Part shown: positions 2,404 to 2,730 of the stretch, one piece after another
Numbering within the stretch: position 1 is the first letter of the stretch
How the letters are laid out: each line of letters begins with the position of its first letter
Position numbers and translations under genes: made by a program
Notes under the pieces: generated by a model
Databases searched by the model: none
Told to the model about the DNA's origin: nothing
What the model saw: the letters and a program-made list of their open reading frames with translations, nothing else
Virus record (IMG/VR): IMGVR_UViG_648276652_000014
Span: 1-25,990 of that record
Length of the DNA: 25,990 nucleotides
Direction: 5' to 3' (one strand)
From: a virus
Taxonomy: Duplodnaviria > Heunggongvirae > Uroviricota > Caudoviricetes

Positions 2404-2404
<1 letters not shown>

Positions 2405-2730
2405 TGACGACGTTAACTCAATGCCAGCAGCAGGTGCTGGATATGCTGATTTCTTACCAGAAAGAGCGTGGCTTTCCGCCAACCAATCAGGAGGTGGCAA
2501 CCATGCTGGGATACCGTTCAGTGAATGCAGCGGTGGAGCATCTTCGCGCACTGGAGAAAAAAGGCGTCATCACGATAAAGCGTGGCGTGGCCCGGGGGAT
2601 AACGCTTCATACCGCGGTGAAGGACGACGACAGCGAGGCGGTCGGGATTATCCGCTCACTGCTTGCCGGTGAGGAAAACGCCAGGCTGCGTGCAGCCCAC
2701 TGGTTACATGAGAGGGAGCTGAAAGTATGA
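2404..2730 (+). CDS. LexA-like winged-helix DNA-binding protein with no peptidase domain
   Basis: [56 protein letters not shown] aligns by eye with the LexA N-terminal domain, including the recognition-helix residues (SPNAAEEHLKAL in LexA). It is only ~109 aa and has no S24 peptidase Ser/Lys region. Start taken at the ATG at 2404 inside track ORF 2371-2730. Confidence 0.7.

Follow-up and report, generated by a model that had tools for sequence, protein, structure and literature searches.

In the 25,990 nucleotides that make up positions 1 to 25,990 of the virus record IMGVR_UViG_648276652_000014, a stretch termed the window below, a small gene at 2404..2730 on the + strand encodes a protein in which a LexA-type winged-helix DNA-binding domain is joined to a helical tail, without the S24 peptidase domain of LexA, as indicated by its open reading frame (ORF) and its matches in Pfam, PHROG and the Protein Data Bank (PDB). 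This LexA-like protein is of the kind of a phage-encoded truncated LexA homologue and belongs to an annotated, uncharacterized prophage family. Its reading frame runs from an ATG at 2404 to a TGA at 2728-2730 and specifies 108 amino acids; the initial annotation had rightly recognized a small LexA-like frame at this place, although its figure of about 109 amino acids was not exact. The start codon shares bases with the TAA of the upstream PerC-family ORF (TAATG), and the stop codon overlaps the ATG of rusA (ATGA, 2727). A longer version beginning at a GTG at 2371 is formally possible, but the ATG at 2404 is favored because the resulting length is in keeping with most relatives (104-111 amino acids) and because this codon coincides with Met1 of LexA in the alignment.

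The winged-helix domain and the helical tail

Residues 1-65 of the LexA-like protein cover the entire Pfam LexA_DNA_bind profile (PF01726, positions 1-65 of 65) with E = 2.9e-19 and 69 bits, the cut-off of this profile being 23.7 bits. A phmmer search against the PDB matched 1lea, the LexA DNA-binding domain from Escherichia coli, which aligns without a gap (7e-16, residues 2-69 on 2-69). An AlphaFold2 model of the protein, with a mean predicted local distance difference test (pLDDT) score of 83, was superposed by Foldseek onto 3jso, LexA in its complex with DNA, with a root mean square deviation of 1.0 A over 68 residues and 50% identity. On this model residues 1-69 (2404..2610, + strand) are predicted to adopt the winged helix-turn-helix (HTH) fold of LexA, with helices at 6-22, 28-35 and 40-52 and strands at 56-58 and 66-68. 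The likeness to the LexA N-terminal domain that had been claimed from the sequence is thus borne out at a level far beyond chance.

The initial annotation had further pointed to conservation of the recognition helix, and the gapless alignment with LexA reproduces that match. The helix, SVNAAVEHLRALEK, comprises residues 39-52 (2518..2559, + strand), and in the stretch compared in the 1lea alignment the LexA-like protein reads RSVNAAVEHLRAL where LexA reads RSPNAAEEHLKAL. E. coli LexA reads CTGT mainly through S39, N41, A42 and E45, mutation of which alters its specificity (PMC11442139), and an older summary counts E44 among the contact residues too (PMC3091678). All four of the former residues are identical in the LexA-like protein, at the same positions, whereas E44 is replaced by V44. 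Across 56 family sequences, which form a redundant sample, residue 45 is Glu in 51. Of nine distant lineages, five have retained the complete set of four readout residues, and the other four deviate at one or two. In three of these five the helix is that of LexA except for E44A; the helix of P0133, P0137 and P0159 is SPNAAAEHLKAL, against SPNAAEEHLKAL in LexA. The N-terminal domains of the distant members are 48-58% identical to that of E. coli LexA and 43-55% identical among themselves, a pattern that would fit ongoing selection for a surface like that of LexA, without proving it. Since S39, N41, A42 and E45 are kept, it is plausible, if at somewhat less than even odds, that the protein could occupy SOS-box-like operators.

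Beyond the winged helix the protein departs from LexA. No Pfam match to Peptidase_S24 (PF00717) was found in it, and the chain stops at residue 108, with rusA as the next gene; against the NCBIfam lexA equivalog TIGR00498 it scores 70.8 bits, below the cut-off of 110.95; and it has neither the Ser119/Lys156 dyad of the LexA peptidase and dimerization domain nor a conserved Ala-Gly cleavage site. The absence of an autocleavage domain, as read from the sequence at the outset, is upheld by these results, which support the view that the protein is not LexA and would be non-cleavable: with the autocleavage domain missing, it should escape inactivation by RecA-stimulated self-cleavage. The segment LLAGEE, which recalls VAAGEP of LexA (Ala84-Gly85), was considered as a relic of the cleavage site or a site of cleavage in trans and was rejected, because its Gly89 varies, being Asn or Lys in close relatives, because the motif is missing from distant ones, and because the segment is predicted to be helical.

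The winged helix is followed by a variable-length acidic linker (residues 71-75; 2614..2628, + strand), which has pLDDT values below 50, shows indels in relatives and is disordered in the model of P0133, and then by a predicted two-helix hairpin (residues 74-103, with helices at 74-88 and 93-103; 2623..2712, + strand). The helices of this tail are predicted confidently in the AlphaFold2 model, and the same layout of linker and two-helix tail recurs in the model of P0133, a relative of 43% identity. Relatives of 104-135 amino acids, recovered when 1.84 billion representative proteins were searched exhaustively with HMMER, are 38-52% identical to the LexA-like protein and align with it through residue ~104. 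In the alignment of the tail, positions 82/83, 86/87 and 100/101 are hydrophobic throughout, A97 and L101 do not vary, and A93 hardly varies. This conservation indicates that the tail is a conserved module and not a truncation scar, and that the gene is not a broken lexA. The initial annotation had noted neither the tail nor the conserved linkage of the gene to RusA and DUF968 described below, nor that the gene already bears a widespread annotation.

Paired hydrophobic residues at each turn are expected of helices that are buried on two sides, which makes the hairpin a candidate dimerization module of the four-helix-bundle type, and from the two models and the conservation we infer that it would render the LexA-like protein a homodimer. 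LexA itself dimerizes through its C-terminal S24 domain (PMC8565304); its N-terminal domain, once cleaved off, has an affinity reduced 10- to 1000-fold, and its removal by ClpXP is needed for full SOS induction (PMC11442139). This need for removal implies that the lone N-terminal domain is still a weak repressor and hence that a dimerizing tail would matter. It is credible that the union of a LexA domain with a new dimerizing tail would yield a high-affinity, non-cleavable binder of the same sites.

The absence of the S24 domain also bears on another suggestion of the initial annotation, namely that the protein serves as a dominant-negative partner. In this scenario it would act as a decoy, forming mixed dimers with host LexA or soaking up RecA*, without any DNA binding of its own, and its ~50% identity to the LexA N-terminal domain could be cited in favor. 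However, RecA* engages the C-terminal domain of LexA, as in the structure 8trg, which is itself among the PDB matches of the LexA-like protein, and the resemblance of LLAGEE to VAAGEP is not conserved and falls in a segment predicted to be helical. Moreover, the dimer interface of LexA lies in the S24 domain (PMC8565304), and as the domain through which LexA dimerizes is lacking here, a dominant-negative role is very improbable. In the wider set of LexA-domain proteins, several chains of 140-350 amino acids that are unrelated to the prophage family (P0129, P0131, P0148, P0152, P0153 and others) carry tandem pairs of LexA_DNA_bind domains and could be single-chain pseudo-dimers. Within the family, the distant members P0126 and P0130 end in ...RRGSAA, a terminus reminiscent of the Ala-Ala ends by which ClpX recognizes the N-terminal fragment of cleaved LexA as well as ssrA tags; the protein of the window ends in ...ELKV.

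Prophage setting and conserved neighbors

The window represents an SfV-like prophage, with homology to SfV from 2121 on through the nin region, the terminase and the Mu-like tail genes. The nin operon to which the LexA-like gene belongs is a delayed-early one, situated between the replication genes and Q. Flanked by the PerC-like gene and by rusA, the LexA-like gene precedes Q by three genes, which agrees with its earlier placement beside rusA in the early-to-late transition region. The upstream PerC-family gene (2087..2404, + strand; Pfam PerC, 3.5e-10), a homologue of SfV orf40, is truncated at its 5' end, matching PHROG 1324 only over profile positions 82-166 of 172, and overlaps the LexA-like gene by one base. 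Downstream, also on the + strand, follow rusA, which encodes a Holliday-junction resolvase (2727..3116; Pfam RusA, 6.8e-15), a gene for a KilA-N domain protein (3136..3945; Pfam KilA-N, 4.9e-27), which is the variable third gene of the module and is replaced by pRha/ANT in some relatives, a gene for a DUF968 or HNH-like protein of the YdfU family (3947..4948; Pfam DUF968, 9.2e-81), and the gene for a Q-type late antiterminator, which closes the module (4949..5659; Pfam Phage_antiter_Q, 3.6e-37).

On the other side, an IS21-family insertion sequence (IS) occupies approximately 186..2120 on the - strand, with istB at 233-1015 (260 amino acids) and istA at 1012-2034 (340 amino acids). Terminal repeats of the TGATCCAC type are visible at each of its ends, and the homology to SfV begins only at 2121. 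With this insertion the 5' part of the PerC-like gene is gone and the nin module is separated from the phage early region. Left of the element, positions 1-170 on the + strand look by eye like part of a second IS21-type transposase, a resemblance on account of which the insertions may be nested; a Pfam search of 37-186 gave no match. The SfV counterpart of the LexA-like gene is orf42, annotated as "unknown", and in SfV (L002) a dam methylase gene (29614-30267) lies between the PerC-like gene and orf42. This dam gene is present in SfV, mEp460 and many E. coli genomes and missing from the window, so that here the PerC-like and LexA-like genes abut (2401-2407); arrangements with and without dam are both found among E. 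coli genomes. Farther downstream, an ORF of 261 amino acids (5853-6638, + strand) separates Q from the lysis genes, a position where cargo genes are usually found, and has a G+C content of ~39% in surroundings of ~52%. It matched no Pfam, NCBIfam or PADLOC family. Membership in a defense system was also considered and was rejected, PADLOC giving marginal matches only.

The family to which the LexA-like protein belongs is widely disseminated. Of 5426 complete E. coli genomes, 2232 have the 327-bp gene at 90% identity or more, with as many as four copies each, and E. coli copies, some of them 100% identical, bear the labels "LexA family transcriptional regulator", "LexA family protein" or "lexA DNA-binding domain protein". 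By tblastn it was found in 61 phage records, including SfV, SfII, SfIV, mEp460, mEp390, cdtI and many Stx2a and Stx2c converting phages. Residues 1-108 match PHROG 362, "transcriptional repressor", over profile positions 1-106 of 106 (E = 6e-59), and copies of this family that are 96-100% identical to the LexA-like protein are present in many genomes. The small PHROG 362 proteins, such as SfV orf42, mEp460_046 and those of cdtI and of Stx2a and Stx2c phages, are of the same family, with a full-length match that includes the tail and nothing that differs; the gene of the window also has the setting typical of PHROG 362, that is, in the nin region, directly 5' of rusA and DUF968 and before the antiterminator. 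A survey of Shiga toxin (Stx) phages lists the family merely as pham 237, "LexA family transcriptional regulator, pfam01726" (PMC8136144), and full-text literature searches on this LexA-like prophage family returned catalogue mentions only and no functional study. The names in the databases are annotations by domain, and the correct domain annotation is already public. More generally, short proteins of 65-150 amino acids with only a LexA domain are widespread among predicted viral structures.

This distribution speaks to the notion that the gene is a decaying, functionless remnant of a captured lexA, to which its place beside an IS insertion in the window, where it is possibly transcriptionally orphaned, might lend some color. 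Against this, the frame is intact, length and tail are conserved in thousands of genomes and in functional phages (SfV, SfII, mEp460, cdtI and Stx2 phages), the architecture is kept at 38-50% identity, and the gene is translationally coupled to its neighbors. On the evidence of this conservation the remnant scenario appears effectively refuted.

The neighborhood itself is strongly conserved. Relatives' loci were collected by a profile scan of genome contigs with a 7-sequence alignment, a scan of viral contigs having yielded near-identical copies only, which are of no use for distant synteny, and gene order was compared in 24 diverse loci from Escherichia/Shigella, Citrobacter, Kluyvera, Kosakonia, Enterobacter, Silvania and metagenomic contigs. 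In 22 of the 24, rusA is the next gene after the LexA-like gene, and DUF968 lies downstream in all 24; the two loci that are missing rusA are L100 and L101. The order persists in relatives of as little as 38% identity, with changing replication genes and three families of antiterminator; the third gene (KilA-N or pRha/ANT) varies as well. Coding regions in the module often overlap, start with stop, by 4 nucleotides, and a DNA methylase gene frequently lies just 5' of the LexA-like gene. In one and the same set of loci (L005-L014 and L095-L108), identity to the window is 42-50% for the LexA-like protein, ~75% for RusA and 64-68% for DUF968.

Such an arrangement raises the possibility that the LexA-like protein is a DNA-binding accessory of the neighboring recombination and junction genes (RusA and the DUF968/HNH-like protein), with an architectural or targeting role instead of that of a transcription factor. 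In addition to the conserved order, the frequent 4-nucleotide overlaps and the methylase often found just upstream, there is a precedent in NinH of phage lambda, a nin-region mimic of Fis that forms homodimers, binds and bends DNA and is toxic if over-expressed (PMC7166090). Like NinH, the LexA-like protein is a small nin-region protein that imitates the DNA-binding part of a global regulator of the host; unlike it, it has a different fold and is modeled on LexA rather than Fis, and in the absence of any sequence relation the analogy is one of strategy and genomic position only. However, synteny in mosaic phages can reflect inheritance of a module and not joint function, L100 and L101 do without RusA, and a structure-specific or non-specific binder would need no conservation of base-reading residues. 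RusA, for its part, works alone as a resolvase. An accessory role of this kind is therefore considered quite improbable.

SOS boxes in the window and in related prophages

SOS boxes were sought with the pattern CTGT-N8-ACAG and with an approximate position weight matrix of E. coli SOS boxes. The initial annotation had suggested scanning this prophage for CTGT-N8-ACAG sites, and in that respect the outcome was negative: in the 26-kb window the sole exact match lies at 1592, within the IS transposase gene, 13 matches have at most one mismatch, where 8.6 would be expected, and the highest matrix score, 9.2 bits, stays below 10. An inverted-repeat search of 2000-7200, combined with a reading of the intergenic DNA after Q and before the lysis genes, produced no LexA-like or candidate palindromic operator.

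Strong SOS boxes are found in relatives of the prophage. Across 105 related loci (812 kb, many of them near-identical), 37 sites of at least 14 bits were detected, most of them scoring 20-26 bits, against ~5 in shuffled sequences, a comparison with chance and not with other lambdoid phages. They recur at four places, namely in a cI-type gene, at a methylase gene after Q, in the spacer between rusA and KilA-N, and at the head of the operon.

In mEp460-like phages a near-consensus box, TACTGTTTTTACATACAGTA or TACTGTTTTTATATACAGTA (~25 bits), lies inside the cI-type repressor gene, at 31970-31989 in mEp460 (L003) and also in L005 (836), L023, L028, L034 and others. It is formed by codons of the linker between the HTH and S24 domains ("NTVCKNSI") and is kept in the cI of L234, which is only 70% identical. 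For this internal box, roles as a roadblock, as a promoter within the gene or as an operator of the LexA-like protein are conceivable. All 11 contigs that have an mEp460-type cI and enough flanking sequence carry the LexA-like module too, among them one in which identity is 70% for cI and 51% for the LexA-like protein. The second site, TACTGTAAAAATAAACAGTG, is situated at the annotated start of a methylase gene between Q and the holin gene (SfV orf48), at 34170-34189 in SfV (L002) and 41021-41040 in mEp460 (L003), and recurs in L021, L022, L030, L042, L059, L076 and L099; at this position the window has a different gene, without an SOS box.

The third, TACTGTATTTATGAACAGT(A/G), occupies a 165-nucleotide spacer between rusA and a KilA-N variant in L094 (4765-4784), as well as in L091, L093 and L073, and upstream of the KilA-N variant it is also written TACTGTATTTATGAACAGTA. 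This variant has its C-terminal half in common with the KilA-N protein of the window, and the layout resembles that of the LexA-controlled antirepressor genes of other prophages. Finally, in two diverged prophages (L011, 4560-4579; L014, 4561-4580) an SOS box lies ~440 nucleotides upstream of the LexA-like gene, after a terminator-like hairpin, and in L011 it is preceded also by a promoter-like site, TTGCAA-17-AATAAT. In both cases it heads an operon consisting of a small ORF (75-82 amino acids, no family) and the genes for the LexA-like protein, RusA, DUF968 and Q, an arrangement in which the late antiterminator would be under direct control of host LexA. The presence of strong boxes in the relatives implies that these phages are wired into host LexA and that operators of the LexA type are available to the LexA-like protein.

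A possible RecA-insensitive binder of SOS boxes

We propose, with a probability of roughly 0.4, that the LexA-like protein is a RecA-proof dimeric binder of SOS-box-type operators that is made only in lytic growth. According to this proposal, the hairpin would dimerize the protein and thereby restore the affinity that the lone N-terminal domain of LexA loses. The protein would be made only once the early operon of the prophage is on, that is, while host LexA is being destroyed, and would bind sites of the CTGT-N8-ACAG type, re-closing LexA-controlled promoters without dependence on RecA. It would act on SOS-box genes of the phage itself where these are present (in relatives the KilA-N gene, the late-region methylase, the site inside cI and the promoter of the operon to which the LexA-like gene belongs) and perhaps on SOS genes of the host, with the net result that SOS-driven expression would become a pulse. 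That a RecA-proof mimic of LexA re-closes SOS boxes after prophage induction has started, and so lets the phage supply a timer or off-switch of the SOS regulon, is a tentative and rather doubtful extension of this idea.

Several observations weigh against binding of SOS boxes by the LexA-like protein. Residue 44 is Glu in none of the 56 family sequences of the redundant sample. P0219, the LexA-like protein of L014, has T42 and I45, despite the consensus SOS box that heads its operon, and P0088 has G45; specificity is consequently not uniformly LexA-like across the family. The window holds no credible SOS box or other operator candidate. A scan of 1950-3200 found no promoter for the LexA-like gene and no promoter-like site between the IS21-family element and the gene, and this copy may have been left unexpressed by the upstream insertion. 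SOS boxes are common on lambdoid phages generally, and their co-occurrence with the LexA-like gene may be plain linkage, as the two lie only a few kb apart. The tight synteny with RusA and DUF968, finally, points to a role of another kind.

It is also conceivable that the protein is a sequence-specific phage regulator with an operator of its own, distinct from the SOS box, and maybe an activator. The closest characterized case is gp6 of the Bacillus tectivirus GIL01, a LexA-domain-only protein of 66 amino acids that binds GaCACAnnTGTGaC at -43.5 and activates the late promoter P3 (PMC6182141). Both proteins are phage-encoded and have only the DNA-binding domain of LexA, but gp6 has no tail, uses a palindromic operator of its own and carries the helix SHKTAHRYLMQL, as against SVNAAVEHLRAL in the LexA-like protein. 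Kinship of the two was rejected, BLASTP giving no alignment at E <= 100, and they are independent derivations in unrelated phages. Besides the precedent of gp6, a regulator with its own operator would fit the family-wide change of residue 44, the variation of readout residues in several lineages and the lack of an SOS box in the window, and the LexA-like protein evolves faster than the adjacent RusA and DUF968 proteins, as do regulators that diversify in specificity. Yet all four direct-readout residues of LexA are kept here, whereas the recognition helix of gp6 differs; there is no BLASTP similarity to gp6; no candidate palindromic operator was found within 2000-7200, the region after Q included; and with the late genes under the Q antiterminator a late activator of the gp6 type would be superfluous. 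We regard an operator of its own as unlikely, though far from fanciful.

Nothing described here is categorically new, and the mechanism, binding of SOS boxes, is one that we infer. If it holds, a very common prophage gene, which ~40% of complete E. coli genomes carry and which is found in medically relevant phages such as those with Stx2a and Stx2c, would let phages override the host's DNA-damage response after the loss of LexA, which would be relevant to antibiotic-induced mutagenesis, prophage cross-talk and Shiga-toxin release. The off-switch, if true, would extend to LexA-controlled phage genes, including the SOS box embedded in cI and, in certain lineages, the promoter of the operon that the LexA-like gene shares with Q. 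A single induced prophage could then alter mutagenesis in the host and the timing of Shiga-toxin phage development, as well as the induction of co-resident prophages and colicins that are under LexA control. Should the protein instead have its own operator or a role with RusA and DUF968, a function would be assigned to one of the most conserved uncharacterized modules in the nin region of enterobacterial phages.

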